64,000 bases of DNA from Rickettsiales bacterium (lineage in GTDB: Bacteria; Pseudomonadota; Alphaproteobacteria; Rickettsiales; UBA3002), in contig JBIIAV010000002.1 in NCBI GenBank assembly GCA_044239745.1, positions 12,583 to 76,582 on the forward strand, read 5' to 3'. Below are positions 1,306-58,089 of this stretch, in pieces. The notes under the pieces are model-generated. The model was not told the origin of the DNA. It did not search any database and saw only the letters and a list, made by a program, of their open reading frames with translations. Every line of letters starts with the position of its first letter. The first letter of the stretch is position 1. The position numbers and the translations under genes were made by a program.

Positions 1306-1566
1306 CTATTTACTATTGAGGACGCGCAGCGCCGTGTAGAACACATCCTTCACGTGTTCCTCGGGCTTGACGCGGCCGGTGCGCATTTCGTCGGCGATCT
1401 TTTTCCAGACATCGTCGGGCATCTCCTTGGCAATGATGGTATAGCCCGCCGCCTCCAGCGCCTTGAGCACCGCCTGCGCCTGTTTGGTATAATCCTCGAA
1501 GAAATAGCTCGAATCCGCCTTGCTGATAGCATTCTGAATCACGGTCTGTAGCTTGGGCTTGCTCAT
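1306..1566 (-). CDS. hypothetical 86-aa soluble protein, translationally coupled to putA
   Basis: Its ATG (1564-1566) overlaps the putA TGA (1563-1565) as ATGA. Intact ORF with no family recognised. Confidence 0.5.
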   Translation of the reverse strand: MSKPKLQTVIQNAISKADSSYFFEDYTKQAQAVLKALEAAGYTIIAKEMPDDVWKKIADEMRTGRVKPEEHVKDVFYTALRVLNSK

Positions 1567-4500
1567 GCCAGCAGCTCGACATTGCCGCCGATGGCAGCGG
1601 TGTTGATGGTGGTGGTGCGCTCGCTGATGAAGCGCAGCAAATAATGCGGGCCGCCCGCCTTGGGGCCGGTGCCCGAAAGCCCCTCGCCGCCGAACGGCTG
1701 CACGCCCACCACCGCGCCCGTCATGCTGCGGTTGACGTAGCGGTTGCCCACCGGCGCTTCGTCCAAGATCGCTTCCATCTTGGCGCGCAGGCGCGTATGC
1801 AGGCCGAAGGTCAGGCCATAGCCGCTGCCGCGGATCTCGCCTAAAATCTTGGGCAGCTCTTTCGATTTATACGTGAAGAAATGCAACACGGGGCCGAAGA
1901 TCTCCTCGCTAAGTTGGCTGGGCGAATCAAGGCCGAACACGTGCGGCGGCACGAAGGTATCGTCCGATGGGGGCGTTGCCCCCAAACCCCCTCCGCTTCG
2001 CGGCTCGCCTTCGGCTACGCACGGCTGAATCTCGCACGCATGGTGCCAGCGCGCGACGCGCTTCATCGCCCCGATATGGGCAAGCAGGCCTTGCTGCGCC
2101 CCACGGTCGATCACCGGACCGATATCGGTCGCAAGGTCGCGCGTGTCGGCCACCCGCAATTCGTCCATCGCGCCCACCAGCAAATCGCGCAGATGTTGCG
2201 CCACTTCTTCCTGCACAAATAGCATCCGCAAGCTGGAGCAGCGTTGCCCCGCCGAGCCGAACGCGCTCGTGATAATATCGTCGCAGGCCTGTTCCAGCAG
2301 CGCCGAGGAATCGACGATCATGGCGTTCATACCGCCCGTCTCGGCGATCAGCGGCACGATCGGGCCGTCCTTTTCGGCCAGTGCGCGCGCAATATATTTC
2401 GCAACGGTCGTCGAGCCGGTGAAGCAGACGCCCGCCACCTGCGGTGCCGTCACCAACGCGGCGCCCACCGTCTCGCCCGCGCCGCAGGCCAGCAGCAACG
2501 CGTCGGTCGGGATGCCCGCCTCGTGCAGCACGGCCACCGCTGCGGCAGCGATGCGCGGCGTTTGTTCGGCCGGTTTGGCGACCACACTATTGCCCGCAAC
2601 CAAGGCCGCCGCCACTTGGCCGATGAAGATCGCCAGCGGGAAATTCCACGGGCTGATGCACACGAACACCCCGCGGCCATGCAGCGTCAGCACGTTGCTT
2701 TCGCCGGTCGGCCCGTTCAGCGTTTGCGGCGCAAATATGCGTTCGGCCTCGTTGGCATAATAGCGGCAGAAATCGACCGCCTCGCGCAGCTCGGCCACGG
2801 CATCGGCATAGGTCTTTTTGGCTTCCGTCACGCATAGGGCGATCATGGCGTCGCGGCGTGCCTCAAGCAGGTCGGCGGCGCGGCGCAAAGCGGCCGCACG
2901 CGTCGCAACGGGGGTCGTGTCCCAGCCATGGAAGGCTGCCTGCGCCCGCGTCACCATCACCGCCGCATCGCTGGCGTGCATGTCCTTGGGTGCGGGTGTG
3001 GGGGTCGAAAAATGCTGCGCAACATGCTGCATGAAATCAAGGCGCACACTGCGGTAACCGAAATCGATGCCGAGCGGATTCTTGCGCGTCGCACCGTAGA
3101 GATCGACCGGCAGCGGAATATCACTCGCCGGTTGTGCGTCGGCGGCGCGCACATGCGCAATCGGGCTTACGGTCAGGTCATCGACCGCCGTGCGTTTATC
3201 CATCAACAGATGCACGAACGAGCTATTGGCGCCATTTTCGAGCAGCCGGCGGATGAGGTAGGCGAGCAGATCCTTGTGCGCCCCGACCGGCGCATAGATG
3301 CGCACGCGGTAGCCGGTAGCATCGTGATGCGCCGCTTGCGTAGGCTCCGCCGCCCCCTTAATCGACACAAGCTGATCATGCAGGCTTTCGCCCATGCCGT
3401 GCAAACGTTGGAACTCATACTGCGCGGGCACACGTTGCTGCGCCTCGGCCATGGTGATGATGGTGGCCACCGTCAGCGCGTTATGGGTCGCAAATTGCGG
3501 GTAAATCGTATCGCCCGCCGCCAATAATTGCTGCGCACAGGCGAGGTAGGAAAGGTCGGTATATTCCTTGCGCGTGAACACGGGATAGCCCGCCAATCCC
3601 TGCATCTGCGCATGCTTGATCTCGCTGTCCCAATAGGCGCCCTTGACCAGCCGCACCGGAATGCGTCGGCCCAGTTTCTTTGCCAATGCTGCAAGCGTTT
3701 CGGCCACGAACACGGCACGCTTCTGGTAGGCCTGCAACACGAATCCGATGCCCTCGAAATCGGCAAATTCGGGGTCCTCGAGCAGGTTCTTATAGATCTC
3801 GAGCTCGATCTCCAGCCGGTTGGCCTCCTCGGCATCCAGCGACACCGCGATGCGGTGCGCCTTGCCTTCGCGTAGAATATCCTTCAGGCGCGGTAGCAAT
3901 TCGTTCATCACGCGCGCTTCCTGTGTTTGGGCATAGCGCGGGTGCAGTGCCGAGAGCTTCACCGAAATGCCGGGGCGGGCGAACAGTTCCGTCTCCTTCG
4001 TCGCCGCCGCGATTTGGCGAATGCCGGTGAGGTACGATTGCACATAGCCTTGCGCCTGCGTGTCCGTGCGCGCGCCCTCGCCCAAAATGTCATAGGAAAT
4101 GGTGTAGCCCTTGGCCTCGTCGTCCTGCGCTTGTTTGATCGCGTCCGCCACCGTTTCGCCCATCACGAATTGGGTGCCGAGGAATTTCATGCCGGCGCGC
4201 AGTGCTTGCCGGATCACCGGCTCGCCGGAGCGTTTGATGAGCCCGCCGAACCATGCGGCCATCGAATCGCCGGCGTCCAAATCCAGCACCGAACCGGTCA
4301 GCATCAGCGCCCAGGTGCTGGCGTTCACCAGCGTCGATTCGCTCTGCCCCAGATGCTGCTTCCAGTTGCCCGAGGCGAACGTATCCTCGATCAGCGCATC
4401 GGCGGTGCTGCTATCGGGAATGCGCAGCAGCGCCTCGGCCAGGCACATCATCGCGATGCCTTCCTTGGTCGATAGGCCATAGGACTGCAAGAACGCCTCG

Positions 4501-4688
4501 ACCGTGTTGGCCGAGCCGACCGCGCGTTGCTTGGTGATGAGGGCGTGGGCGCGCGCGCGGATGGTGGCGTCCATCGCCGTAAGCGGGCGCACCCGTTCCA
4601 GCAGCGCCTGCACGCGGGTGCGTTCATCCGCCAGTGCGTGCGCGCTGATATTGTCGAGCCAATGTTCCATGGCCGCCGACCTTGCCAT
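1563..4688 (-). CDS. putA: bifunctional proline dehydrogenase / L-glutamate-gamma-semialdehyde dehydrogenase PutA
   Basis: About 1040 aa. PRODH barrel region plus aldehyde dehydrogenase domain (FTGST, EAGGKNA-like ETGGMNA, catalytic SAGQRCS). Start moved to ATG 4688 (MARSAAMEHW...) because the longer track ORF would overlap the tRNA at 4781-4857. Confidence 0.93.
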   Translation of the reverse strand: MARSAAMEHWLDNISAHALADERTRVQALLERVRPLTAMDATIRARAHALITKQRAVGSANTVEAFLQSYGLSTKEGIAMMCLAEALLRIPDSSTADALIEDTFASGNWKQHLGQSESTLVNASTWALMLTGSVLDLDAGDSMAAWFGGLIKRSGEPVIRQALRAGMKFLGTQFVMGETVADAIKQAQDDEAKGYTISYDILGEGARTDTQAQGYVQSYLTGIRQIAAATKETELFARPGISVKLSALHPRYAQTQEARVMNELLPRLKDILREGKAHRIAVSLDAEEANRLEIELEIYKNLLEDPEFADFEGIGFVLQAYQKRAVFVAETLAALAKKLGRRIPVRLVKGAYWDSEIKHAQMQGLAGYPVFTRKEYTDLSYLACAQQLLAAGDTIYPQFATHNALTVATIITMAEAQQRVPAQYEFQRLHGMGESLHDQLVSIKGAAEPTQAAHHDATGYRVRIYAPVGAHKDLLAYLIRRLLENGANSSFVHLLMDKRTAVDDLTVSPIAHVRAADAQPASDIPLPVDLYGATRKNPLGIDFGYRSVRLDFMQHVAQHFSTPTPAPKDMHASDAAVMVTRAQAAFHGWDTTPVATRAAALRRAADLLEARRDAMIALCVTEAKKTYADAVAELREAVDFCRYYANEAERIFAPQTLNGPTGESNVLTLHGRGVFVCISPWNFPLAIFIGQVAAALVAGNSVVAKPAEQTPRIAAAAVAVLHEAGIPTDALLLACGAGETVGAALVTAPQVAGVCFTGSTTVAKYIARALAEKDGPIVPLIAETGGMNAMIVDSSALLEQACDDIITSAFGSAGQRCSSLRMLFVQEEVAQHLRDLLVGAMDELRVADTRDLATDIGPVIDRGAQQGLLAHIGAMKRVARWHHACEIQPCVAEGEPRSGGGLGATPPSDDTFVPPHVFGLDSPSQLSEEIFGPVLHFFTYKSKELPKILGEIRGSGYGLTFGLHTRLRAKMEAILDEAPVGNRYVNRSMTGAVVGVQPFGGEGLSGTGPKAGGPHYLLRFISERTTTINTAAIGGNVELLA
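1966..2022 (-). repeat. palindromic-element copy inserted in-frame in putA
   Basis: Gene-sense sequence is GTGCGTAGCCGAAGGCGAGCCGCGAAGCGGAGGGGGTTTGGGGGCAACGCCCCCATC. It encodes CVAEGEPRSGGGLGATPPS inside the ALDH domain. Confidence 0.7.
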
Positions 4689-4780
4689 GCCCACGGCCAA
4701 TGTCAACACGCGGCAGCATTCGCCCCCGCCGATTCGCGGCTTCCCCCGCCCGTGCGATTGCGCTATGACCGGCCCAACGT

Positions 4781-4857
<77 letters not shown>

Positions 4858-4874
4858 TCAGCTTAATTTAAATT

Positions 4875-5104
4875 GAAGGGGGCATCGCCCCCTACGCGCC
4901 GCCCATTCACACGTTTGTGATTAGCGTTGCGTAGCGCTTTATGGCGCATCCGCGCGGGAGAGGCGCAGCAACGCGAAGCCAATCACATCGCGCTACGCGC
5001 CGCCCATTCACACGTTTGTGATTAGCGTTGCGTAGCGCTTTATGGCGCGAGCCGCGATAGTGGAGGGGGTTTGGGGGTGATACCCCCATCCACGCGCGAA
5101 GCGC
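4875..5104. repeat. tandem/composite copy of the palindromic-element family immediately 3' of tRNA-Arg
   Basis: GGGGGC-ATC-GCCCCC hairpin at 4878-4892. A 56-bp perfect direct repeat (4892-4947 = 4993-5048, period 101 bp) contains GCGTAGCGCTTTATGGCGC. It ends with GAGCC...GGGGGT-GAT-ACCCCC. Confidence 0.85.
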
Positions 5105-7723: not shown

Positions 7724-8263
7724 TTAATATCCCAGCTGGGCGATGCGTAGCTGGCGCGCACGCGTCAGCACCGTGTCCTCGAGCTTGCGGCCGAGTTTGG
7801 CGTCCGTCGTCGCGTTCACCCAATTGCCCGCCTTGTCTTTTTTCTGGCGGAAGGTCGTGATCTTCAAACTATCGGCACGCAGTTGGCGATCCAAGATCAG
7901 CACGTTCACCTTGAAGCGTTCGCCGGCAGCATCGGGGTCCTCGTACCAATCGGTGAGGATGGTGCCGCCGAACGGATCGGCCGCGGTGATGGGCAGGAAC
8001 GAAAGCGTATCGAGCGCGCCGCGCCACAGGAAGCTGTTCACGCCCAGAGGGTTCTTGCCTGCCTCTTTTTCCTTATCGCTCACCCCGCCGATGGTCAGGC
8101 CTTCTTCGCCGGTCACTTTACCGATGCGCGCCTTGCGGCGGTCTTCTTCGGTCTTGGGATAGGTGGTGCCTTCATCCGGGCGCACATCGCTGCACGAAGG
8201 CAAGGCCAGCAGCAGCATACAGGCCATAAAAACCGCGCGCGGCGACGAGAAAGAAGCAGTCAT
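7724..8263 (-). CDS. DUF3576-type lipoprotein
   Basis: 179 aa. Signal peptide plus lipobox LALPSC. It sits directly upstream of leuS, with its stop 3 nt before the leuS start. Family assignment is from memory of alphaproteobacterial leuS neighbours. Confidence 0.6.
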   Translation of the reverse strand: MTASFSSPRAVFMACMLLLALPSCSDVRPDEGTTYPKTEEDRRKARIGKVTGEEGLTIGGVSDKEKEAGKNPLGVNSFLWRGALDTLSFLPITAADPFGGTILTDWYEDPDAAGERFKVNVLILDRQLRADSLKITTFRQKKDKAGNWVNATTDAKLGRKLEDTVLTRARQLRIAQLGY

Positions 8264-8334
8264 AATTCCATGCCTTCAGGGTGGATCAATGCCGCGTACA
8301 CTAGCAATAATCCATGGTTTTGCAAGGGGCATGC

Positions 8335-8365
8335 GCGGGCAGGCCATACATCACAGCCTGCCCGC
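8335..8365 (-). terminator. hairpin downstream of the DEAD-box helicase gene
   Basis: 10-bp stem GCGGGCAGGC/GCCTGCCCGC with an 11-nt loop, 13 nt after the stop. No clear U-tract. Confidence 0.35.
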
Positions 8366-8377
8366 GATAGTGTCGTT

Positions 8378-9598
8378 TCACGCCGCTTTTTTATCGGCGT
8401 GGAAATGGCGGCCACCGCCACCCGAACGGAAGGGTTTCTTGCCACCGTATTTCTTGTTGCGCGCCTTGGCGTAGGAGCGCGGCTTGTCGGCGAACTCACC
8501 GCCTTCGGGCTTCTGGTTGGGGTTGAGCAAGCGCTGGATCGCCTTCCATTTGCCGTTATCCTTTCCGGTGAGCAGGTTCACTGCCTCGCCGGTCTTGCCG
8601 TTACGGCCCGTGCGGCCGATACGATGGATGTAATCCTCCGGACATTGCGGCATGTCGTAGTTGATGACATGTTCGATATGCGGAATATCGAGCCCGCGCG
8701 CGGCGATGTCGGTCGCCACCAGGATGCGGCATTTCTGGGCACGGAAATCGGCGATGACGCGGTCGCGTTGGCGCTGGTTCAGATTGCCGTGGATGGCTTG
8801 GGCGCGGTGGTTCAGCGCTCCCAGCTTCTTGGCCATCTTCTCGGCGCCGAATTTGGTCTGCACGAACACAAGGATGCTGCCTTCGCGCTGTTGCAACTGC
8901 ACTTGCAGTTGGCCGTATTTATCGGCTTCGGAAACGGTGATGACCTCCTGCTTGATCTTCGCGATCGGGGTGTTGTTGTCACCGACCGAGACCCGCACCG
9001 GATCGGCCATGTATTTTTGCGACATCTTGACGATGTTGGCCGGAAAGGTCGCCGAGAACATCAAGGTCTGGCGCACGGCAGGCATATGTTTCACCACCGC
9101 GTCGATCTGGATGCCAAAGCCCATATCGAGCATGCGGTCGGTCTCGTCGAGCACCAAGAAACTCGCATCGGCAAGCTTCAGCGTGCCGCGGGTGAGGTGG
9201 TCGTTGATGCGGCCGGGCGTACCCACGATCAAACGCGGGCGAGCGCGCAGCTGGCCGAATTGTTTGCCCATCGATTCGCCGCCGATCAAAAGCGCCGTGT
9301 GAATGCCGCTATCGGCGCCGAGCAATTGCTCCAGCATCGTCATCACCTGCACCGCCAATTCGCGGGTCGGGGTCATGACAAGTGCGCTGCCGCGCGGGGT
9401 GGTCAGCAGCTTGGCGATCAGCGGAATGCCGAAGGCGCCGGTCTTGCCGGTGCCGGTCTGGGCGGAACCCAGAATATCCTTGCCCTCAAGCGCCGGCGGA
9501 ATGGCCGCGGCTTGGATCGGGGTCGGGGTCGTGAATTTCATGTAGTCGAGGGCTTGCAGCAAATATTCCGGCAAGCCGAGTGTCTTGAAGTTTTCCAT
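8378..9598 (-). CDS. DEAD-box ATP-dependent RNA helicase (RhlE/DeaD-like) with basic C-terminal tail
   Basis: Q-motif, AQTGTGKT, PTRELA, DETD (DEAD variant), SAT and HRIGRTGR motifs. Lys/Arg/Gly-rich tail. Confidence 0.92.
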   Translation of the reverse strand: MENFKTLGLPEYLLQALDYMKFTTPTPIQAAAIPPALEGKDILGSAQTGTGKTGAFGIPLIAKLLTTPRGSALVMTPTRELAVQVMTMLEQLLGADSGIHTALLIGGESMGKQFGQLRARPRLIVGTPGRINDHLTRGTLKLADASFLVLDETDRMLDMGFGIQIDAVVKHMPAVRQTLMFSATFPANIVKMSQKYMADPVRVSVGDNNTPIAKIKQEVITVSEADKYGQLQVQLQQREGSILVFVQTKFGAEKMAKKLGALNHRAQAIHGNLNQRQRDRVIADFRAQKCRILVATDIAARGLDIPHIEHVINYDMPQCPEDYIHRIGRTGRNGKTGEAVNLLTGKDNGKWKAIQRLLNPNQKPEGGEFADKPRSYAKARNKKYGGKKPFRSGGGGRHFHADKKAA

Positions 9599-9788
9599 GT
9601 TCTATCTTTCATGTCGTTGGTGCATGGCGGCCGAGCATTCGGCCGTCACGCGGGTTTCCATTGGGGGTCAAGCTACGTGATAGCGATCCTCGTGTGGTCG
9701 CAAATAATCGTCCGCCCAGTATGGAAAACGACTACAAAAACCTCCCTCACGGCACGCATGCCGCAAGAGAGGCTCTTTAAGATAGCTT

Positions 9789-9812
9789 AAAAAGAAGCGT
9801 CACGCTTTTTAG
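9789..9812 (-). terminator. symmetric rho-independent terminator candidate downstream of cspA
   Basis: AAAAAGAAGCG-TCA-CGCTTTTTAG: a short GC stem flanked by A-run and T-run. It lies between the cspA stop and the helicase start. Confidence 0.4.
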
Positions 9813-10572: not shown

Positions 10573-10630
10573 GAAGGGGCCTCGCCCCTTCGCGAACGCT
10601 GACCCGAGGCTCGCCATGAAGGCTACGCAC
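10573..10630 (-). repeat. intergenic copy of the palindromic-element family (carA leader region)
   Basis: Reverse complement reads GTGCGTAGCCTTCATGGCGAGCCTCGGGTCAGCGTTCGCGAAGGGGCGAGGCCCCTTC. Confidence 0.75.
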
Positions 10631-10653
10631 GCTAAAGTAGGATTCGTTATACG

Positions 10654-11904
10654 ATGACCATGCCGCTGAAACCTGCACCCAACGCCGCCTTACTTCTTGC
10701 GGATGGGACAGTGTTTTTTGGCCAAGGCATCGGGCAAGCGGGCACCACCAGCGGCGAGATCTGCTTCAACACCGCCATGACCGGCTATCAGGAAATCCTG
10801 ACCGACCCTTCGTATGCCGGCCAGATCATCACCTTCACCTTCCCGCATATCGGCAATGTCGGCACGAATGACGAGGATATCGAGAGCCTCGTGCCCGTCG
10901 CCGCCGGACTCATCCTGCGCGAGGCGATCACCGAACCTTCGAACTTCCGCAGCCAAAGCCACCTCGATGCGTGGATGAAAAAGCACGGCCTGCGCGGCAT
11001 CAGCGGGGTGGATACGCGGGCGCTGGCGCGCCATATCCGCATCAACGGCGCGCAGAATTGCGCCATCATCATCAGCGCGCAAGGCGCGCCTAACCTCGAT
11101 AAACTCAAAGCCGCCCTCGAAGCCGCACCCGACATGAACGGCTTGGAATTGGCCGCGCATGTGACGACGAAAGAAGCCTATACGTGGCAAGAGCCGCGCT
11201 GGACATTGGGCGCGGGGCATACGCCGCAAACGCAAGCGGTCGATGCATCGGTGCGTAGCGTAAGCGAGCCGCGCAGCGGCGGGGTCAGCGGCGAAGCCGC
11301 GAAGGGGCAAAGCGCCCCTTCATTGTGCCACGTAGTGGCAATAGATTACGGCGTCAAACGCAACATCCTGCGTTCGCTGATATCAGCCGGCGTGCGCCTC
11401 ACGGTCGTACCCGCCACCGCCACCGCCGAGGAGATCTTGGCCCTCAACCCCGACGGCATCTTCCTAAGCAATGGCCCCGGCGACCCCGCCGCCACCGGCA
11501 GCTACGCCGTGCCCACCATCAAGAAACTGATTGCCAGCAGCAAGCCCCTTTTCGGCATCTGTCTTGGCCACCAGATGCTCGGCATCGCCCTTGGCTGCCG
11601 TACCGAAAAAATGCGCCAAGGGCACCGGGGTGCCAACCATCCGGTGAAGGATCTGGCCACCGGCAAGGTCGAGATCACCTCGCAGAACCACGGCTTCGCG
11701 ATTAGCGATACCAACCTACCCGAGGACGTCGAAGTCACCCACCGCTCGCTGTTCGATGGCACCATTCAGGGCATCCGCGTCGTCGGCAAGCCCATCTTCA
11801 GCGTGCAAGGCCACCCCGAGGCCTCGCCGGGGCCACATGATTCGCACTACCTTTTCCAGCGCTTCGTTCAGTGCATGCGCGCCGATACAAAGAAAGCAGC
11901 CTAA
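10654..11904 (+). CDS. carA: carbamoyl-phosphate synthase small (glutaminase) subunit
   Basis: 416 aa. Conserved N-domain and class-I GATase (GICLGHQ, HGFA, QGHPE). Stop overlaps the carB start (TAATG). Confidence 0.96.
11251..11322 (+). repeat. palindromic-element copy inserted in-frame in the carA interdomain linker
   Basis: GTGCGTAGCGTAAGCGAGCCGCGCAGCGGCGGGGTCAGCGGCGAAGCCGCGAAGGGGCAAAGCGCCCCTTCA. It encodes [24 protein letters not shown]. Confidence 0.75.
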
Positions 11905-17482: not shown

Positions 17483-17490
17483 TTTTTTAG

Positions 17491-17671
17491 TAGGGGACTC
17501 TTTGTCCCCTACGCTTCGCTGACCCCCAGCCGCTTCGCGGCTCGCCATGGAAGGCTACGCACCGCCTACTCAAACGTTTGGATTATCCGTGCGTAGCGCT
17601 TTATGGCGCGAGCCGGAGCGAAGCGAACGAGGGGGAACGGAGTGGGGGCGAAACGCCCCCATAGCGAAGCG
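17491..17671. repeat. full inverted dimer of the palindromic-element family between convergent genes
   Basis: Left hairpin GGGGAC-TCTTT-GTCCCC. Left arm CCGCTTCGCGGCTCGCCATGGAAGGCTACGCAC. Loop CGCCTACTCAAACGTTTGGATTATCC. Right arm GTGCGTAGCGCTTTATGGCGCGAGCCGGAGCGAAGCG. Right hairpin GGGGGC-GAAAC-GCCCCC. Confidence 0.85.
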
Positions 17672-26904: not shown

Positions 26905-26963
26905 GGCATGGCCACGAGCGAAGGCGTGACAAATGCCTAAAATCCCTCTAGGTCTTGGGCATC

Positions 26964-27680
26964 ATGATCACCGTCTACATCTTCATCCTTACCTTCTCGG
27001 CATGGCTGGGTGCCTATGGTCTGCTCAAGGTCGGCCAGCGCATCACGTTGCTGATCAGCCGCACGTTGCGTCTGCCGGCAGGGCTGTTCGCGCTCGCCTG
27101 CGTGACCCTCTTCTTGGTCGTGGTCGGGGCGCCGGCATCCTTGCTGGTCGGGGTCATCCTGCTGGCGCTGTTTCATTTCATGAACACCCTTTATTACCTG
27201 CCCAAACTGGCGCAGTGGGGCATTCCTTTCCTTGCCGCGCTGCTGGCCGTCGGCGGCGGCGGTGTGCCGGTGGTCGCTGGCCTGCCCCAACCGCTGGTGC
27301 AGGCCGCCATGCTGGCGCTGCTCATGGCCATCGTGTGGGGGTCGGCACGCACGCCGACGGAGCTCGCCCCCGCCAGCGCCGGTTGGCTTGCCTGCCTGTT
27401 TCCGGTATTGCTCGCACCGCTGTTTGGCGCCCCCTCCTTCCTCGCGCTCGATAGCGCCCTCATCGCCGCCGCGCTGCTTGGCGCATTGATGGCCGCACCC
27501 GCTGACGCCCGCATGAGCATCGCCCGCGCGCCGTTCGCCCTGCTCATCGGCTGGCTCATGCTGCAACCTGCGGCGCATGGGGTGGCATGGGCAAGTGCCC
27601 TTGGCCTGCTCATCTATGGCGTCTTCCTTCTCGCCCAGCGCCCCACCCGCGCGATCGGTACTCCGCATGCGGCCGCTTAG
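26964..27680 (+). CDS. polytopic inner-membrane protein of unknown function
   Basis: About 238 aa and almost entirely hydrophobic (6-8 predicted helices by eye). Its end overlaps the start of the CapD-like gene. The track start at 26955 is a TTG, so the ATG at 26964 is used. Confidence 0.5.
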   Translation: MITVYIFILTFSAWLGAYGLLKVGQRITLLISRTLRLPAGLFALACVTLFLVVVGAPASLLVGVILLALFHFMNTLYYLPKLAQWGIPFLAALLAVGGGGVPVVAGLPQPLVQAAMLALLMAIVWGSARTPTELAPASAGWLACLFPVLLAPLFGAPSFLALDSALIAAALLGALMAAPADARMSIARAPFALLIGWLMLQPAAHGVAWASALGLLIYGVFLLAQRPTRAIGTPHAAA

Positions 27681-29553
27681 ATTCTCGCAAAATGTCCTCG
27701 CCATCGTGCATGACGGGGCGATGGCCACGCTCAGCCTCATACTGGCTTTGGCCTTGCGGTTGGGGTCGCGCACCTTCAGCTACACCGAAAGCTTCATCGT
27801 CGAAGGCTGCATCGCCTTCAGCGTGCTGCTGGTCGCCATCTTGCTTTATTTCCGCGCCTATCGCCATGTCTGGCGCTACACGGCGCTGGGCGATCTGGTG
27901 ATCATCGCGCGGGCGGCGTCGCTGGCGCTGCTGCTATTCTATCTCGGCCTGTTTGCCTTCACCCGCCTCGAATACATGCCGCGCTCGGTGCCCTTCATCC
28001 ACTGGATGACCCTCATGCTGTGCCTGATGGCAGGGCGCGTGCTGACGCGCCTCATCCATGACCGCGACCTCATCAACCGCCTGATGGGACGCACCGGCAA
28101 CCGCATTCCGGTGCTGCTGGTGGGCGTCACTTCGCAAGCCGAGATGTTCATCCGCGAATCGGCGCGGCGCGTCGATTTCCCCTACCGCGCCATGGGCATC
28201 CTTGATGACGACAAACGCCAGCACGGCCGCGAGATCCACCGCGTGCGCGTCTATGGCGGGGTCGACGAGATCGGCTACGTCCTCAAGAAACTGGCGCGCA
28301 AAGGCAAAAGCCCGCAGCGGATCATCTTGGCCGACGCCAACATCACCGCCGATGCCTTCAAGCATCTGCTCGCCATCGCCGAGGAGCACAGCCTAACCCT
28401 TGCCCGCCTGCCCTCGCTGAGTGAGCTGCGCGACGGCGACCGCCTGCACGACATCCGCCCCGTCGCGGTGGAGGATATCCTCGGCCGGCCGCAAGCCACG
28501 CTCGACCGCCCCGCCATGCGCGCCTTCGTGCAGGGTAAGCGCGTGCTCATCACCGGTGCCGGCGGTTCCATCGGCGCCGAGCTGGTGCGTCAGATCAGCG
28601 GCTTCCAACCCGCCGAGCTACTGCTGTTCGACCTGTCGGAATACAATCTCTATTCCATCGACCAAGAGCTCACCGAGATCGCTCCCGCCATCCCCCGCCA
28701 CCCCATCATCGGCGATGTGCGCGACCACGATCATCTCGCGCGCACCTTCGCCCGCTTCAAACCCGAGGTGGTGTTCCACGCCGCTGCCATCAAGCATGTG
28801 CCGCTGTCGGAATCCAACCCCGAGCAGGCCGTGCTCACCAATGTGCTCGGCAGCAAGCACGTGGCGGACGCCTGCATCGCCCACGGCGTCACCGCCATGG
28901 TGCAGATCTCGACCGATAAGGCGGTCAACCCGCTTTCGGTCATGGGTGCCACCAAGCGCACCGCCGAGATCTATGGCCAGATGCTGGCGCAGGACGGCGC
29001 GCCCACCCGCTTCATCACCGTGCGCTTCGGCAATGTCCTCAATTCCGCCGGTTCGGTCGTGCCGCTGTTCCAAAAACAAATTGCCCGCGGCGGCCCCGTC
29101 ACCGTCACCCATCCGGATATGGTGCGCTATTTCATGTCCATCGCCGAGGCGGTGCAGTTGGTGCTGCAAGCGGCGGTGCTTGGCACCACCGGCGAGGATC
29201 GCGCGCCCATTTTCGTCCTCGATATGGGCGAGCCGGTACGCATCGAGGACCTCGCCTGCCAGATGATCCGCCTCGCGGGGCTCAAGCCCTACGAGGACAT
29301 CGCGATCGAGTTCACCGGCCTGCGTCCGGGCGAGAAACTGTTCGAGGAATTGTTCCACGACGCCGAGAACATGCTCGATACCGCCCATCCCTCCATCCGT
29401 TTGGCGCGGGCGCGCAGCTACGATCGTTTGAGCATCCTCGGCGCCATCACCGATTCCATCACCGCCGCCAAGAACGGCGATAAGGCGGCCTTGCGCGGGC
29501 TGCTCAAACGCATCATCCCCGAATATGAACCCGAACAGAAAAGCGCCGCATGA
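27667..29553 (+). CDS. membrane-anchored polysaccharide biosynthesis protein (CapD/PglF/WbpM-type NDP-sugar 4,6-dehydratase)
   Basis: N-terminal TM helices, then SDR Rossmann ITGAGGSIGAEL, and the motifs AAIKHVP and STDKAVNP. Confidence 0.88.
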   Translation: MRPLRFSQNVLAIVHDGAMATLSLILALALRLGSRTFSYTESFIVEGCIAFSVLLVAILLYFRAYRHVWRYTALGDLVIIARAASLALLLFYLGLFAFTRLEYMPRSVPFIHWMTLMLCLMAGRVLTRLIHDRDLINRLMGRTGNRIPVLLVGVTSQAEMFIRESARRVDFPYRAMGILDDDKRQHGREIHRVRVYGGVDEIGYVLKKLARKGKSPQRIILADANITADAFKHLLAIAEEHSLTLARLPSLSELRDGDRLHDIRPVAVEDILGRPQATLDRPAMRAFVQGKRVLITGAGGSIGAELVRQISGFQPAELLLFDLSEYNLYSIDQELTEIAPAIPRHPIIGDVRDHDHLARTFARFKPEVVFHAAAIKHVPLSESNPEQAVLTNVLGSKHVADACIAHGVTAMVQISTDKAVNPLSVMGATKRTAEIYGQMLAQDGAPTRFITVRFGNVLNSAGSVVPLFQKQIARGGPVTVTHPDMVRYFMSIAEAVQLVLQAAVLGTTGEDRAPIFVLDMGEPVRIEDLACQMIRLAGLKPYEDIAIEFTGLRPGEKLFEELFHDAENMLDTAHPSIRLARARSYDRLSILGAITDSITAAKNGDKAALRGLLKRIIPEYEPEQKSAA

Positions 29554-34708: not shown

Positions 34709-36112
34709 TTAGGGTGCATGGGTGGCCTCCGTCACAGTCGGCGGGGTGGGCACTTGCGGCAGCAACTGGCCGGTGACACCGCGTGGGGCAACCAACACCG
34801 CGCGCGCCGCTTCAAGCGCCGAGGCGGCACTCACCTGCTCGATGCTATCCGTCCATTGATAGAAATACTGTTCGTCGAGCCCGATGGCATAAAGTTGCGC
34901 CATCCACTGCGCCAGCGGCTGCAGTCCGTCCTGCGCGAATACCGCATCGGCCTTGAGCAATGTTTTGGCGCGGTCGATACCGGCGGCATCCAGCGGTGCG
35001 GTCATGGCCTGTTCCAGTGCGCGGTTGAGCGCTTCCTCCAATTGGCCAAGCGATACTCCCGCCGCCGGAATCGCACGGATGCGAAACAGCGCCGGCCCGA
35101 TCGATTGCGGGTCATAGCTCACGCTCACTTGCGTCGCCACGTTCTGTTGCCGCACCAGCGCATCGTAAAGCACACTGGCATCGCCGCCGCCGAGATATTG
35201 CGCGAACACGGCCAATGCCATGGCCTGCGCGCTGGTGCCTTCCTTCACACTGGGCGCAACATATTGCCGCAGCAAACGCGGCTCATTAACGCGCACATCG
35301 CGCATCTCGCCGCGGCGCGTCAGCCGCATCGGCGGCTCCTTCGGCCATGCGCGCACCGGCGCAGCACTGGCGGTCAGTCCACCGTAATAGCGCTGCGCAT
35401 CGCGGCGCACTTGCGCCACCGTCACGTCGCCCGCCACCACCAGAATCATGTTGGAAGGACGGTAATACATCGCGTGGAACGCAGCGGCATCCTCGGGCGT
35501 GAAGCTGGCCATATCCTCCGCCCAACCGATGACCGGCCGGCCATACGGATGGTTGAGGAATGTCAGGGCGTCGAGCTGTTCGTGCCATTGCGCGGCGGGA
35601 TTGTTCTCGACCCGTATGCCCCGCTCTTCGGTGATGACCTTAAGTTCGCGCGCGGCGATCGTAGGGTCGATGATGAGGTTGGCCAAGCGGTCGGCCTCCA
35701 TCGTCATCACCGCCGGCATATGCTGCTTGGGCACCGTCGCGTAATAGAGCGTATAGTCGCGCGTGGTATAGGCGTTCTGTTCACCGCCGACACGGGCGAT
35801 GGCGCGGTCATAGGCGCCTTCGGGAAAATTCTTGGTGCCACCGAACATGAGATGTTCCAGGTAATGCGCAAGGCCGGATTTGCCGTAAGGGTCATCCGCC
35901 GCGCCGGCTTTCACCACCAGCAGATGGCTGACGACCGGCATGCGATCGTTGGGCATCACCACCACCTCAAGGCCGTTGGTGAGGCGGAATTTCTCGACCG
36001 GCACGGCCGTGCGCACATCACGCTCGCGCACCGCGGAGCCGCTGACGAAATAGATACCGACCGCCAGCAGCACCAACAACACCATCAGCGGGATGAAATA
36101 GCGCTTGAGCAT
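34709..36112 (-). CDS. M16-family zinc peptidase (catalytic subunit)
   Basis: N-terminal TM/signal sequence. Inverted zinc motif GLAHYLEHLMF (HxxEH). Confidence 0.88.
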   Translation of the reverse strand: MLKRYFIPLMVLLVLLAVGIYFVSGSAVRERDVRTAVPVEKFRLTNGLEVVVMPNDRMPVVSHLLVVKAGAADDPYGKSGLAHYLEHLMFGGTKNFPEGAYDRAIARVGGEQNAYTTRDYTLYYATVPKQHMPAVMTMEADRLANLIIDPTIAARELKVITEERGIRVENNPAAQWHEQLDALTFLNHPYGRPVIGWAEDMASFTPEDAAAFHAMYYRPSNMILVVAGDVTVAQVRRDAQRYYGGLTASAAPVRAWPKEPPMRLTRRGEMRDVRVNEPRLLRQYVAPSVKEGTSAQAMALAVFAQYLGGGDASVLYDALVRQQNVATQVSVSYDPQSIGPALFRIRAIPAAGVSLGQLEEALNRALEQAMTAPLDAAGIDRAKTLLKADAVFAQDGLQPLAQWMAQLYAIGLDEQYFYQWTDSIEQVSAASALEAARAVLVAPRGVTGQLLPQVPTPPTVTEATHAP

Positions 36113-36718
36113 CTAGAAGATACGATCGATCAGGGAATCGCTGCCGGATTTCTCGACCGGCACCTCCCCTTCGGTGACAGGTTTTCCCTCGTCCTTATTC
36201 GCGCGCAGGCGCTCGGCCTCTTTCTTGGCGTCCACCGTCGGTTCGTTCTTCTCGGCACCGCTGATCTTCTCAAGCAGCGAGGTCGCTTTGCTGGTGTCGG
36301 CAGGGGTCGCGGCATCCACGCTCAATTGGGTACGAATATCCTCGCGCGCCGCATCAGCGCCGGCGCGTTTAAGCAAGCTTTGTGCGCCGCCGCTCAAGGC
36401 ATCGCTTCGTTGCACCGGCGTCACGGCGGTGTCGGCCGTCGTGGCTTCAAGCGCCGCGGGGTCGGGCAATGCGGTCACGGGTTTGCCGGTGATCAGGGCG
36501 CGCGCTTTTTCATCGGTGGCGGTGCCGCGCGGCTCCTCGCCGGCACGCGGTGGGCGCAGCGTGAATTCCGGTGGCAGCGAAAGCGGCGGGCGCGAGACCA
36601 CGGTGAATTCGTCCGGCGCTTCGCGGTTGATGCCGAGCGTTTCTTGCACGCTGTTATTATCGCATGCGGCAAGCAGCAGCGGCAGCATGATGACAAGCGG
36701 TTTCAAAAACGTTTTCAT
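36113..36718 (-). CDS. DUF3035-type lipoprotein
   Basis: Lipobox LLLAAC. Low-complexity Ala/Pro/Glu-rich body. Its stop abuts the M16 start. Confidence 0.6.
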   Translation of the reverse strand: MKTFLKPLVIMLPLLLAACDNNSVQETLGINREAPDEFTVVSRPPLSLPPEFTLRPPRAGEEPRGTATDEKARALITGKPVTALPDPAALEATTADTAVTPVQRSDALSGGAQSLLKRAGADAAREDIRTQLSVDAATPADTSKATSLLEKISGAEKNEPTVDAKKEAERLRANKDEGKPVTEGEVPVEKSGSDSLIDRIF

Positions 36719-36749
36719 GGGCGCTAGACTACACCGATTGGCGAGAACT

Positions 36750-41532: not shown

Positions 41533-42981
41533 CTAGTGGTGGGCAGTGGATGCGGTGACCGCAGCCGTGATGGATGCAGGTAGCGGGCGCGGTTTCTCGA
41601 TGCGGCCGACGATGGGCAGCACCACCAAGAAATGCGCGAAGTAGTAGCCGGTGCACAGCAACGAAAGCAGCGGGAAGATGCCTTCCGGCGGCTTGCTGCC
41701 GCAATAGCCGAGGATTACAGCGTTGATGGCGAACAGCCAGAAGAACCAACGATAGATCGGGCGGTAATTGCTCGAGCGCACGGGGCTGGTATCCAGCCAC
41801 GGCAACGCGAACAGGATGAGAATGGCGCCGAACATGGCGAGCACCCCACCGAGCTTCGACTCAATCACTGCGCCTGCAAAGCCTGTCACCGTCAGCACGG
41901 TCGCAAGCGTGAGCATCGACGCGATACACATCACGCCGCATGGTTTCTTGGGCAGGAACGAAGCCAGCGCCCCCAGAATGCCGTTGGTGCCAAGCAGTGC
42001 GCGCACCAGCGTCGCGTAGCGCAGCACCGCGGTCAGCCCGAACAGGCCAAGGCCTAAAATCCATAGCGGGATATCAAACGTGATGGCGCGCAGGATCGCG
42101 TAGAACGGCAGGAAATACCATTCCGGCACGATGTGCTTGGGCGTCACCAGCGGGTCAGCGGGGATGTAGTTATCGGGGTGGCCGAGATAGTTCGGCGCGA
42201 AGAACACGAATGCCGCGAACACCAAGAAGAACACCCCGAACCCGAAGAAATCTTTCGAGGTATAATACGGGTGGAACGGAATTTGGTCCTGCGGGCCCTT
42301 CACATCGATACCCGTCGGGTTGTTGCTGCCATGTTGGTGCAGCGCCATCAAATGCATCATCACCACGCCGACCAGCACGAACGGCATCAGAAAATGCAGC
42401 GCAAAGAAGCGGTTCAGCGTCGGGTTATCGACCGAGAAGCCGCCCCACAACCACGCCACGATATCCTCGCCCACCAGCGGGAAGGCCGAGAACAGGTTGG
42501 TGATCACCGTCGCGCCCCAGAAGCTCATCTGGCCCCATGGCAGCACATAGCCCATGAACGCCGTCGCCATCATCAGCAGCAAAATAATGATGCCAAGGAA
42601 CCATAGCAGTTCGCGTGGCCGCTTGTAGGAGCCGAAATACAGCCCGCGCGCGATATGGATGTAGGTGACGATGAAGAACATGCTGGCGCCCACCGCATGC
42701 ATGTAGCGAATGAGCCAACCGTAATTGACGTTACGCATAATCTGCTCGACCGAATCGAACGCGAGCGCGGTGGAGGCGGCATAGTGCATGGCAAGGAACA
42801 GGCCGGTCAGGATCTGGCTGACGAGCATGACGCCCGCAAGCGAGCCGAAGTTCCAGAAATAGTTCAGGTTGCGCGGCGTCGGGTACTGAACCAGCGAGTT
42901 GTTCAGCATCGAGAAAATCGGCAGACGATATTCGATCCAACCGACGATACCGGGTTTTTCTTCCTGTGGTGCGTGGGCCAT
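41533..42981 (-). CDS. petB: cytochrome b of the bc1 complex (with an unusually long hydrophobic insertion after the PEWYFL motif)
   Basis: 482 aa. His ligands in the [13 protein letters not shown] and [20 protein letters not shown] contexts. [13 protein letters not shown] motif. Confidence 0.94.
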
Positions 42982-44138: not shown

Positions 44139-44672
44139 ATGCTCAATCTCGTCCTCTATCAACCGGATATTCCCCAAAATCTAGGGGCTTGCCTGCGGCT
44201 TTGCGCATGCATGGGCGCCACGGTGCACATCATCGAGCCCTGCGGCTTTGTGCTGGATGATACCAAAATTCGTCGCGCCGGCATGGATTATATGCATAAA
44301 GTCAACTATGTCCGCCATCTCGATTGGCAGGCCTTTCTAAACTATCGCCATGCAGCGGATGAAGCCCGCGTAGCCTCCCATGGCGAGCCGCGTGCGGAGG
44401 GGGGAAGCAAAGCGAGGGGGGCGATGCCCCCTTCACGATTACTCCTACTCGAGACGGATGGCGCCACCCCCTACACCGAGATTTCCTACCAACCCACCGA
44501 TTACATCGTCTTTGGCCGCGAATCGGCCGGCACGCCGGCAGCGCTCTATGCGCAGATGGACACCACCCTCACCATCCCGATGGTGGCGGGCATGCGCTCC
44601 TTGAATGTCGCGATGAGCGCTGGCATGGTGGTCGCCGAAGCCTGCCGCCAAATGAATTGGAAATTTGCATGA
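44139..44672 (+). CDS. trmL: tRNA (cytidine/uridine-2'-O)-methyltransferase TrmL (SpoU/TrmH family)
   Basis: MLNLVLYQPDIPQNLGACLRLCA..., FGRESAGTP, IPM..GMRSLNVAMSAGMV. Roughly 24 aa longer than canonical because of the repeat insertion. Confidence 0.9.
   Translation: MLNLVLYQPDIPQNLGACLRLCACMGATVHIIEPCGFVLDDTKIRRAGMDYMHKVNYVRHLDWQAFLNYRHAADEARVASHGEPRAEGGSKARGAMPPSRLLLLETDGATPYTEISYQPTDYIVFGRESAGTPAALYAQMDTTLTIPMVAGMRSLNVAMSAGMVVAEACRQMNWKFA
44367..44434 (+). repeat. palindromic-element copy inserted in-frame in trmL
   Basis: CGCGTAGCCTCCCATGGCGAGCCGCGTGCGGAGGGGGGAAGCAAAGCGAGGGGGGCGATGCCCCCTTC. It encodes ARVASHGEPRAEGGSKARGAMPPS. Confidence 0.75.
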
Positions 44673-57382: not shown

Positions 57383-58012
57383 CTATCTGTTTCCGTGCGG
57401 TTTAAGTGATAATTGCGATATCGAAATAATGCTGGATATCGCATGCGTTTTACTTGGTTTTGCGGTGCTTTGATAGTCCCATGATTCACTGGCTTTTTTC
57501 AATTCCTCGGCAGCGTTTTCGCCTTTGGGAAAGAGGGCGATGCCCCCTGCCCCCATCAGCCGATGCGCCATAGCGAACAGACCATCCAGCGCCGTCAACG
57601 CCCGCGCCGTCACCACATCGTATTGCCCGACGAGCTCGGCGATATCGATCGCCATGACCGTAACATTGGAAAGACCAAGACGATGCTTTGCTTCGGTAAG
57701 GAACGCTGCCTTACGCTGGTCCTGCTCGACCAAGGTAACGAACAGTTGCGGACATTGTATCGCAATCACCAACCCCGGTAAGCCAGCCCCACTTCCCAAA
57801 TCGACAAGGGTTTTGGCATTTTTGGGAATCAACGGAACCAATTGCAAGCTATCATCGATATGGCGCGACCAAATATCGGCTTGTGTTGCAGGGCCAATCA
57901 GATTGATCTTCGCGTTCCACTTTAAAAGCAGCGCGACATAATCGGCCATGGGTGAAAATGTTTCACGTGAAACATTTTGTGGCGATGATGTTTGTTGATC
58001 AACACGAAGCAT
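57383..58012 (-). CDS. rsmG: 16S rRNA (guanine527-N7)-methyltransferase
   Basis: 209 aa. VSRET...LLLKWNAKINL N-terminus. SAM motif DLGSGAGLPG. Confidence 0.93.
   Translation of the reverse strand: MLRVDQQTSSPQNVSRETFSPMADYVALLLKWNAKINLIGPATQADIWSRHIDDSLQLVPLIPKNAKTLVDLGSGAGLPGLVIAIQCPQLFVTLVEQDQRKAAFLTEAKHRLGLSNVTVMAIDIAELVGQYDVVTARALTALDGLFAMAHRLMGAGGIALFPKGENAAEELKKASESWDYQSTAKPSKTHAISSIISISQLSLKPHGNR
57959..57974. promoter_or_regulatory. parS: parS centromere site 1 (inside rsmG codons for VSRET)
   Basis: Perfect TGTTTCACGTGAAACA. The palindrome extends to 24 bp (57955-57978). Confidence 0.9.
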
Positions 58013-58061
58013 GGTGTCTACATAATCAATCTGACGCGTCTTGTCATCTCGAATCTAAAAA

Positions 58062-58077
58062 TGTTTCACGTGAAACA
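58062..58077. promoter_or_regulatory. parS: parS centromere site 2 (rsmG-mnmG intergenic)
   Basis: Perfect TGTTTCACGTGAAACA. The palindrome extends to 26 bp (58057-58082). Confidence 0.9.
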
Positions 58078-58089
58078 TTTTTGGATGGT

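Follow-up and report, generated by a model that had tools for sequence, protein, structure and literature searches.

The question raised by this locus is whether a short segment in the P5C-dehydrogenase domain of PutA is a native part of the enzyme or a copy of a repeat that has entered the coding sequence in frame. In the window, i.e. the whole 64-kb stretch of DNA analysed, the host gene was placed as follows:

1563 to 4688, minus strand: putA (proline dehydrogenase / P5C dehydrogenase), 1041 aa from the first ATG

The mechanically derived ORF extends to 4844, overlapping a tRNA-Arg gene. Pfam assigned to the product the domains Pro_dh-DNA_bdg (E = 8.8e-43), Pro_dh (3.9e-98) and Aldedh (2.8e-98), the columns of the catalytic motifs E264-T-G-G and C298 are invariant in a 62-sequence PutA alignment, and the solved structure 3HAZ (B. 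japonicum PutA) matches the window protein at E = 4.8e-137.

On the minus strand, positions 2022-1965 read GTGCGTAGCCGAAGGCGAGCCGCGAAGCGGAGGGGGTTTGGGGGCAACGCCCCCATCG. In the putA frame, the codons at 2021-1965 encode CVAEGEPRSGGGLGATPPS and then DDTFVPPHVFGLDSPSQLSEEIFGPVLH, and this translation places CVAEGEPRSGGGLGATPPS immediately ahead of the FVPP...EEIFGPVLH region, just where the earlier note had located it (before F(V)PP..F...EE.FGPVLH). The segment was resolved into the following parts:

1966 to 2022, minus strand: short-form repeat copy, read in frame within the Aldedh (P5C-dehydrogenase) domain encoded by putA
2022 to 2015, minus strand: head of the copy, GTGCGTAG
2015 to 2007, minus strand: hairpin hp1, GCC-GAA-GGC
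2003 to 1993, minus strand: hairpin hp2, CCGC-GAA-GCGG
1992 to 1985, minus strand: G-run
1984 to 1968, minus strand: terminal hairpin (hp4), TGGGGGC-AAC-GCCCCCA

The presence of a repeat in frame in the aldehyde-dehydrogenase domain, which the earlier note had claimed with almost exact coordinates, was confirmed by two nhmmer searches: a profile built from other copies matches 1957-2029 (minus strand) at E = 2.4e-16, and a 48-copy profile puts the element at 2021-1966 at E = 4.6e-11. The 20-mer core of the putA copy has four matches in the window with up to 3 mismatches, against 0.02 expected, and the copy aligns column for column with 15 other short-form copies.

About ten copies of the repeat lie in the 64 kb. 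At least four fall within ORFs, namely putA, carA, that of a SpoU-type methylase and hemF, the copy in hemF being divergent; the intragenic share in the window is about 4-5 of 10. Apart from the copy in putA, they are:

4874 to 4903 (minus strand) and 4928 to 4955 (plus strand): partial copies inside a 101-bp duplication
5029 to 5090, plus strand: intergenic short-form copy adjoining tRNA-Arg(CCT)
10575 to 10630, minus strand: intergenic copy without hp2, directly upstream of the carA start
11251 to 11321, plus strand: long-form copy, in the carA reading frame, within the linker that joins the domains CPSase_sm_chain and GATase; it encodes a 24-residue peptide in the EPRSGG frame
17495 to 17562, minus strand: intergenic long-form copy that forms, with the next copy, a head-to-head inverted pair between convergent genes, of which it is the left arm
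17589 to 17659, plus strand: intergenic copy, right arm of the same pair
44368 to 44435, plus strand: in-frame long-form copy within the ORF (44139-44672) of a SpoU-family RNA methyltransferase, peptide ARVASHGEPRAEGGSKARGAMPPS
44796 to 44888, plus strand: divergent element-derived segment, in the frame of the coproporphyrinogen oxidase (hemF) ORF and close to its N-terminus, GCGTAGCGCGGATGGCC... to GGGGGCGACTTCGCCCCC

The EPRSGG core frame noticed in putA is also used in the carA and SpoU-type ORFs; the SpoU-type protein has 164 residues against 140 profile positions. The hemF segment encodes MRSADGPREPE...GGGDFAPRG, its nucleotide match being weak. The spacer between the heads of the 17495-17659 pair is conserved also at 4892-4935. 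The window lies left of a GC-skew minimum and its copies divide 4 to 5 between the strands, which gives no support for a replication-strand bias.

The monomer measures 56-82 nt and is made up of a GCGTAG head and, after it, three or four short hairpins. The shared architecture, to which the putA copy conforms, is as follows: GCGTAG head, hp1, GAG, hp2 (CCGC-GNA-GCGG), G-run and a terminal GGGGGY-N3-RCCCCC hairpin. The element is modular, with short and long forms in which individual hairpins are present or absent; GTAG stands directly before the terminal hairpin only in the long-form copies. The GCGTAG head is found in every window copy recovered by the profile search, whereas its conservation in other genomes is partly circular, as the scan pattern demanded GCGTAGC. 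The GC content is about 70% (our own count of the consensus) versus about 61% for the genome. As folding of single copies is uninformative in such GC-rich sequence (z-scores from -0.4 to -2.6, one positive), covariation was used instead. The stems of hp1-hp4 vary between copies yet remain complementary: in the short-form alignment 98.6% of the cells pair, as against 41-60% in slid controls, compensatory changes occur at three pairs, and the covariation score was reached by none of 500 shuffles. Rfam returned no family at the gathering threshold except tRNA, and no meaningful match came from scanning the intergenic pair at permissive settings. A reading of the hairpins as terminators was rejected, since an A-rich tail and no T-run follows the terminal hairpin on either strand. 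CTAC is enriched 9-23 nt beyond the terminal hairpin, where about a third of the copies have it; in the putA locus L001 and in L060 this CTAC coincides with a native Tyr codon, and it may be either the tail of the element or its target.

These data bear directly on one alternative, namely that the segment is a native, lineage-specific PutA loop whose likeness to other loci is a coincidence of GC-rich, low-complexity sequence. The length before the F-V-x-P strand does vary among PutAs. However, the nucleotide E-values against non-coding copies range from 1e-11 to 1e-16, the spacing of all the motifs and hairpins is common to the copies, and near-identical sequence is found in the intergenic DNA of other MAGs. 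This reading is thus effectively refuted and we consider it scarcely credible.

Comparison with orthologues supports an insertion. In 50 of the 60 closest PutA homologues there are no residues at the insert position, the 3HAZ sequence aligns with a 20-residue gap exactly there (G862/P863), and an empty site was found at the DNA level in a relative, in the 77%-identical putA orthologue L002. The peptide itself was found only in the PutAs of MAGs that carry the repeat elsewhere, and aligned to PutA in no taxon without the repeat. The copy has 57 bases, corresponds to PutA residues 890-908 and, relative to an empty orthologue, adds a net 51 nt or so (17 codons), the PutA protein gaining about 17-19 residues. 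AlphaFold predicts the insert (residues 371-389 of the modelled fragment) to be without secondary structure, between the strands at 362-365 and 397-401, with pLDDT below 50 at residues 374-387, while the remainder of the domain is confident (pTM 0.87).

We therefore regard the segment at 1966-2022 as very probably a frame-keeping copy of a small, non-autonomous, GC-rich repeat, carried as a tolerated passenger and not as a designed part of PutA. The earlier note had spoken of an independent insertion. That it is an insertion relative to orthologues, by the same element and in the same frame as in carA and the SpoU-type ORF, holds; the site, on the other hand, is not unique to this genome, since nine related PutAs have this loop filled as well. 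With several related species occupied, two possibilities arise: an old insertion, or a hot spot.

Under the first of these possibilities, a single insertion in the PutA loop of the clade's ancestor was inherited vertically and lost many times, and the window copy is old. All filled orthologues have a common 3' junction (..PPS, three residues, F/Y-V/I), some copies look decayed (P0003, P0024, P0027), and loss by deletion does occur: the PutA site of P0007/L105 has been reduced to a deletion remnant, GCGATGCCTCCATC, which is the 3' half of the terminal hairpin. Against this, filled and empty sites interleave on the PutA tree, so that under vertical descent the insert must have been cleanly lost at least eight times independently. 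Different variants occupy the site in the sisters P0001 and P0002: one is a short form whose hp1 is GCC-TCCCAT-GGC, the other a long form whose hp1 is GGC-TCC-GCC and which has an additional hp3 and another hp4. Moreover, a neutral loop is expected to diverge faster than its flanks, but here it diverges more slowly: the window and L001 share an identical core, GGCGAGCCGCGAAGCGGAGGGGGTTTGGGGGC, despite about 77% identity of their putA DNA, and the element is thus far more conserved than its flanks. Finally, the intergenic DNA of a MAG with just 67% PutA identity holds copies nearly identical to the window subvariant (hp1 GCC-GAA-GGC). A single old insertion is possible, but on balance we doubt it. 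The different variants in the sisters, together with the deletion remnant, point to a hot spot with turnover, and we infer that the PutA site is recurrently used or converted. Alleles of the same species were sought in JGI metagenome contigs with two degenerate flank patterns, in empty and filled spacing, and none were found.

Differences in occupancy are not confined to putA. The carA site is filled in the window, whereas the CarA of L060 (67% identical) is devoid of these 22 residues; for carB the situation is reversed, as the gene is filled in L060 and nhmmer detected no copy in that of the window. Compared with the filled genes of L076, the window purH is shorter by about 39 residues and its mutL by about 25, and the domain stretch of the window purH nearly equals the profile length. 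Altogether the element occurs in about 14 uncultured alphaproteobacterial MAGs, some of them labelled Rickettsiales, other taxa giving single chance matches. Across the related loci at least 18 of about 60 copies are intragenic; about a third of all copies stand in frame in housekeeping genes, in either orientation. Eleven host genes in relatives were verified by Pfam: those for an inositol-phosphatase family protein, PurH, MutL, PriA (two copies), Aat, MnmC, ClpB, UvrC, RsmE, a PRTase and, as the eleventh, CarB. An assembly artefact was rejected, as the ORFs are continuous and the same architecture is present in independent assemblies. A 48-aa concatenate of two peptide variants, run against an index of 5.8 billion proteins, was an uninformative query (11 candidates, one weak match).

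How such a copy might be accommodated can be outlined from the alignments and the structural model. The repeat has inserted into putA with the reading frame kept. At a beta-hairpin turn of the catalytic P5C-dehydrogenase domain it would give rise to a loop that is rich in Gly, Pro and Ser and probably disordered; owing to this position and disorder, the enzyme most likely still works. The loop would be tolerated and neutral, and its peptide presumably retained. Selection would remove copies that break the frame, bear the TAG of the head in frame or fall in structured regions; this filter would account for the few shared frames of the surviving intragenic copies and for their position in loops and linkers. 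A trans-acting enzyme of REP/RAYT or IS200/IS605 (HUH) type may recognise the hairpins in single-stranded DNA, to which the GNA triloops would point; alternatively, copies may spread by gene conversion. No transposase or RAYT gene was found by Pfam among 49 greedily selected, non-overlapping window ORFs of at least 80 codons, and tblastn with an approximate E. coli RayT query, a weak test, gave no match below E = 0.6 in about 0.8 Mb of related loci. No target-site duplication was definable, filled and empty sites having only 75-80% nucleotide identity.

A segment that persists in this way might also have been co-opted, either as a flexible surface loop of PutA or as an mRNA or DNA hairpin that acts on transcript stability, translational pausing or protein binding and thereby modulates the expression of putA. 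The hairpin stems are indeed under structural constraint, REPs in other bacteria have been reported to function as RNA or DNA elements (PMC3733652), and the filling of the same loop in nine related PutAs could reflect an acquired function. However, intergenic copies and those in a dozen unrelated host genes show the same stem constraint, which therefore belongs to the element, not to PutA. Most PutAs, including those of equally close relatives, do without the segment, AlphaFold gives it no structure, and the hairpins lack the T-runs of a terminator. Co-option is in our opinion improbable, and the interpretation as a tolerated passenger is retained.

Rickettsia is the textbook case of small palindromic repeats invading housekeeping genes in frame. 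In R. conorii nearly half of the RPE copies are intragenic according to a review, and a 2024 review (PMC10969869) considers in-frame invasion unusually frequent in Rickettsia and only 'conceivable' elsewhere. Like the RPEs (RPE-1 and its relatives; Ogata et al. 2000, cited through PMC3733652 and PMC10969869), the window element is a short, hairpin-forming dispersed repeat of alphaproteobacterial hosts, with many copies in frame in unrelated, intact housekeeping genes, where it adds a conserved peptide in loops or linkers; its insertion points are fold-compatible (the PutA loop according to AlphaFold and the 3HAZ gap, and the interdomain linker of CarA). Unlike them, it is very GC-rich and of apparently unrelated sequence, which sets it apart in appearance and composition, is 56-82 nt long as compared with about 100-150 nt, and is built of a GCGTAG head with 3-4 mini-hairpins, both orientations being used in genes. 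The hosts differ too: reduced, obligate intracellular Rickettsia on the one side and GC-rich uncultured MAGs with full biosynthetic genes on the other. Because of the GC-rich composition, homology to the RPEs (RPE-1 to RPE-10) seems unlikely.

With the GTAG REP/REPIN/BIME sequences, which are mobilised by RAYTs (Di Nocera et al. 2013, PMC3733652), the element shares the invariant GTAG head, GC-rich hairpins with compensatory stem changes, frequent head-to-head inverted pairs (17495-17562 with 17589-17659 in the window; L042, L043 and L076 in relatives) and copies between convergent genes near stop codons. Intragenic REPs are known in several species and their hosts include the repair/replication genes uvrA and uvrB (PMC3733652); the present family likewise has UvrC, MutL and PriA. 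A classical REP, however, is one palindrome of 20-40 nt right after the tag; no such single palindrome adjoins the tag here, where 3-4 distinct hairpins follow, and the intragenic fraction is much higher than usual. Bacterial MITEs, such as ERIC, BOX and the QMITE1 of Coxiella (PMC10969869, PMC5896051), are also small non-autonomous repeats that overlap ORFs and add peptide segments, but QMITE1, at 300-400 bp, is much larger. A MITE reading was not favoured, as neither terminal inverted repeats nor a detectable target-site duplication was found: the monomer ends, TGCGTAGC... and ...CCCCCATC, are not inverted repeats, and only the composite pair has inverted arms.

The window element appears to be a new repeat family, the behaviour of selfish DNA inside genes being itself known from Rickettsia. 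Taken by itself, the putA finding has an ordinary explanation, that of a tolerated passenger repeat. The window genome, which encodes PutA, CarAB and PurH, is not visibly reduced, and a comparable frequency of in-frame gene invasion in such GC-rich genomes suggests that the process does not depend on reductive intracellular evolution. A bolder reading, speculative and in our view rather unlikely, would be that of a second, independent gene invasion on the scale of the RPEs, in a GC-rich and probably free-living clade, by a string of mini-hairpins (GNA triloops closed by C:G) that is still active or homogenised by conversion. In sister species, different variants would repeatedly settle in identical permissive loops of a given enzyme, as at two sites in PutA. 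If this were true, site-preferential integration, or conversion from dispersed copies, would keep remodelling protein loops, and the system could bear on the origin of the Rickettsia habit, as some of the MAGs are labelled Rickettsiales. In practical terms, the family calls for caution in the annotation and alignment-based phylogeny of these MAGs.

The repeats also constitute natural 'loop-insertion scans' of many enzymes, and these include two permissive sites in PutA. The second of them lies in the linker between the PRODH and P5CDH domains:

3337 to 3359, minus strand: decayed, reverse-oriented remnant in the PRODH-P5CDH linker of putA, AAGGGGGC..GGAGCCTACGCA, encoding KGAAEPTQ

This linker site holds full reverse copies in some relatives and is empty in others.

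The minus-strand sequence of window positions 2022-1965, GTGCGTAGCCGAAGGCGAGCCGCGAAGCGGAGGGGGTTTGGGGGCAACGCCCCCATCG, is read in the frame of its host gene as CVAEGEPRSGGGLGATPPS, followed immediately by DDTFVPPHVFGLDSPSQLSEEIFGPVLH, which confirms both the sequence and the peptide given for this segment in the earlier note. The host ORF extends mechanically over 1563-4844 and its first ATG lies at 4688; the part upstream of this ATG overlaps a tRNA-Arg gene. The mechanical start, a GTG at 4844, is spurious; the ORF is read from there antisense through tRNA-Arg. Pfam identified the product as PutA (Pro_dh-DNA_bdg, Pro_dh and Aldedh domains).

The closest PutA homologues found among 5.8 billion proteins were only 75-77% identical, and all came from metagenomes or MAGs. 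In the alignment of 61 sequences the segment is missing altogether from 50 of the 60 homologues, a related peptide, typically RVASHGEPRSGGGLGAMPPS, fills the position in nine, and one has eight unrelated residues there; the catalytic-motif columns (ETGG and the Cys of GQRCS) are invariant. The solved PutA of B. japonicum (3HAZ), which matches the window PutA with E=4.8e-137, shows a 20-residue gap at the segment, between G862 and P863. At the DNA level the site is empty in the related locus L002 (PutA 77% identical), while the element is present in L001 (PutA 74% identical), where its 32-nt core is identical to that of the window despite only ~77% identity of the putA DNA. The AlphaFold2 model of the C-terminal 522 PutA residues, based on a 62-sequence alignment, had a pTM of 0.87; within the insert (residues 371-389), residues 374-387 have pLDDT <50 and no secondary structure, and the insert is flanked by strands 362-365 and 397-401. 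The orthologue gaps, the empty L002 site, the modelled loop and the invariant motif columns therefore identify the segment as an insertion that keeps the frame and extends a hairpin-turn loop, the enzyme being otherwise normal and probably still functional. The earlier proposal of an insertion is thus supported by the orthologue alignment, the 3HAZ gap and the empty L002 DNA.

Four matches to the 20-nt core with <=3 mismatches occur in the window, against 0.02 expected. A first profile, built from six hand-picked copies, placed the putA copy at 1957-2029 (-) with E=2.4e-16, and a second, built from 48 copies from many genomes, bounded it at 2021-1966 (E=4.6e-11). The remaining features are as follows.

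Element copies and related segments in the window
~5021-5102, + strand, element copy (six-copy profile)
~17486-17568, - strand, element copy (six-copy profile)
~17582-17670, + strand, element copy (six-copy profile)
~44360-44440, + strand, element copy (six-copy profile)
~11245-11313, + strand, element copy (six-copy profile)
~10577-10632, - strand, element copy (six-copy profile)
near 4874-4958, element fragments (six-copy profile)
44796-44888, + strand, divergent element-like copy, N-terminal and in frame in the coproporphyrinogen oxidase gene (ORF 44657-45766)
3359-3337, - strand, decayed reverse-oriented remnant, AAGGGGGC..GGAGCCTACGCA, peptide KGAAEPTQ, in the PRODH-P5CDH linker of putA

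Of about 10 copies in the window, 4-5 are intragenic. Three ORF copies, in putA, carA and a SpoU-family methylase gene, share the EPRSGG frame, so that the same element does occur in the same frame in other genes, as had been claimed. In carA (CPSase_sm_chain + GATase) it occupies the interdomain linker; the methylase comprises 164 residues versus 140 profile positions. The coproporphyrinogen oxidase segment (~35-40 aa, MRSADGPREPE...GGGDFAPRG) appears to belong to a divergent subfamily of the element, and in loci L103 and L104 the same GCGTAGCGCGGATGGCC head forms a second arm within the PutA linker. Between convergent genes, 17495-17562 and 17589-17659 form a head-to-head inverted pair with a conserved central spacer; a related arrangement is found at 4874-5090, and such pairs are also present in the related loci L042, L043 and L076. 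A perfect 56-nt direct repeat at 4892-5048 (spacing 101 bp), adjoining tRNA-Arg(CCT), is a local duplication of the central spacer and head of the element.

The 48 copies taken from the window and from related loci align well and gave the following anatomy.

Parts of the element, in order
Head, (G)TGCGTAG
Hairpin hp1, stems GCC/GGC, GCGC/GCGC, GCCC/GGGC, GCGTT/AACGC or flipped GGC/GCC, loops GAA, TCCCAT or TTTATG
Triplet GAG
Hairpin hp2, mostly CCGC-GNA-GCGG
G-run
In long copies only, TCA and hairpin hp3, e.g. GC-GAA-GC, GCGGC-GAA-GCCGC, GCAAC-GAA-GTTGC, GCACC-GAA-GGTGC, GCCTGC-GTA-GCAGGC
Terminal hairpin hp4, stems GGGGGC/GCCCCC, GGGGGT/ACCCCC, GGGGAC/GTCCCC or GAGGGT/ACCCTC
(A/T)TCA and an A-rich tail

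In three copies hp2 is compensated to CCGAGC...GCTCGG, and the tail ends in CTAC in about one third of copies. The copy in putA has the short form, and its hp1 is GCC-GAA-GGC; this subvariant recurs in intergenic DNA of one MAG, with a PutA of only 67% identity, and within PurH of a second. In the alignment of 16 short-form copies, 98.6% of cells pair, versus 41-60% with slid partners, three hp4 pairs show compensatory change, and the covariation score was reached by none of 500 shuffles; constraint thus acts on the structure at every location of the element. GNA triplets with a closing C:G pair make up many of its loops. As in d(GCGAAGC) mini-hairpins, they mark hairpins of unusual stability in DNA rather than in RNA, and for this reason we infer that the element is recognised as single-stranded DNA. 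Rfam contained no family matching it.

The anatomy also bears on the common frame. The TAG of the head closes one forward frame, and by sequence logic a frame avoiding it leads into EPRSGG at the three common hp1 lengths (9, 12 and 14 nt), which accounts for much of the frame sharing to which the earlier note drew attention. Other open frames are CVALGASREAAGVS, in MnmC, and AAKRRG, seen only outside genes.

Scanning one genome per species with a sequence pattern gave 100 stretches; the genome of the window is absent from the scanned genomes carrying the element. The profile confirmed it only in ~14 uncultured alphaproteobacterial MAGs, often at several loci each, which bear the labels uncultured Azospirillum, Rickettsiales bacterium, Alphaproteobacteria bacterium or Pseudomonadota bacterium. 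The hits in other groups, Actinomycetes and Acidobacteria among them, are single matches due to chance. Of about 60 copies detected, no fewer than 18 lie within genes. Pfam-confirmed hosts of in-frame copies on the gene strand are an inositol-phosphatase family gene, PurH, PriA (two copies), Aat, MnmC, PRTase and CarB; those of opposite-strand copies, encoding ...GGLTP..AASRLAMEGYA-type peptides, are MutL, ClpB, UvrC, RsmE and PutA. Presence and absence are reciprocal between genomes: carA is filled in the window and empty in L060, which has a copy in carB, where nhmmer found none in the window. Likewise, purH and mutL are filled in L076, and their window orthologues are ~39 and 25 residues shorter, the purH domain stretch being near profile length. 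In L085 (982-1477, MAG JBIIEL01) one priA holds two clear in-frame copies and a possible third fragment (..GGGTPPS..), and in L097 an extra hairpin-derived piece, GGASPPS, stands just ahead of the full copy in MnmC.

In the neighbour-joining PutA tree, lineages with filled sites are interspersed with lineages with empty ones. An old insertion with later losses is favoured by the constant 3' junction in filled orthologues, by the decayed appearance of some copies and by L105, which retains only the 3' half of hp4. Against pure vertical descent, the sisters P0001 and P0002 carry different variants at this one site (short versus long form, with differing hp1, hp3 and hp4), and the element is far better conserved than its flanks. 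A second, reverse-oriented site, in the linker of PutA, has a similar filled/empty pattern: L103, L104 and L105 have the full copy (encoding ..GGLTPPAASRLAMEGYA..), L001 and L002 have none, and the window retains a remnant. We conclude that the two PutA loops are probably hot spots with turnover, by re-insertion or gene conversion from dispersed copies. A search of JGI metagenome contigs found no same-species sequence in which a polymorphic empty putA site could have been seen.

Pfam detected no transposase or RAYT family among 49 window ORFs, and tblastn, a weak test, no RAYT in related loci. The element resembles REPs/REPINs in its GTAG head, CTAC near the opposite end, inverted doublets, hairpin covariation and DNA-type triloops; by this analogy, mobilisation by RAYT (HUH) transposases would be a possible specific mechanism, though less likely than not. 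The outcome, a non-autonomous repeat whose intragenic survivors are the copies that kept the frame and landed in loops, has good support. The element differs from REPs in not being a single 20-40 nt palindrome, and no MITE ends could be demonstrated for it. In behaviour it is like the Rickettsia RPEs, palindromic repeats lying in frame within genes (PMC3733652, PMC10969869). Intragenic GTAG/CGTC REPs occur in Opitutus terrae, Thauera, Thioalkalivibrio and R. conorii (PMC3733652), and MITEs such as ERIC, BOX and QMITE1 are also known within genes (PMC10969869, PMC5896051). The element is best filed as a new family among known in-frame intragenic repeats; our literature search found no earlier description of such repeats in this alphaproteobacterial clade. 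Taken alone, the putA insertion is what one would ordinarily expect from such a repeat family, and it is the family that holds moderate interest.

Unrelated PutA inserts of the PSPQPSPGGRG / PSPASGRGKLS type in the homologues P0043 (~residue 231) and P0023 (~residue 569) seem to be translated from another GC-rich repeat family. The C-terminal domain match of the cytochrome b ORF (41533-42981, -) covers 175 residues versus 102 Pfam profile positions; some 70 residues may have been inserted here, in a stretch where the element profile has no match. The predicted ORFs 7883-9790 (+), 34718-36727 (+) and 26937-27773 (-), of 635, 669 and 278 aa, had no Pfam match at E<=1e-3 to 1e-5. At 57951-58575 the mnmE-mnmG-rsmG-parA-parB cluster and its surroundings contain four copies of the palindrome TGTTTCACGTGAAACA, which is the parS consensus. 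With its cumulative GC-skew minimum at ~57-58 kb, the window is probably close to the origin.
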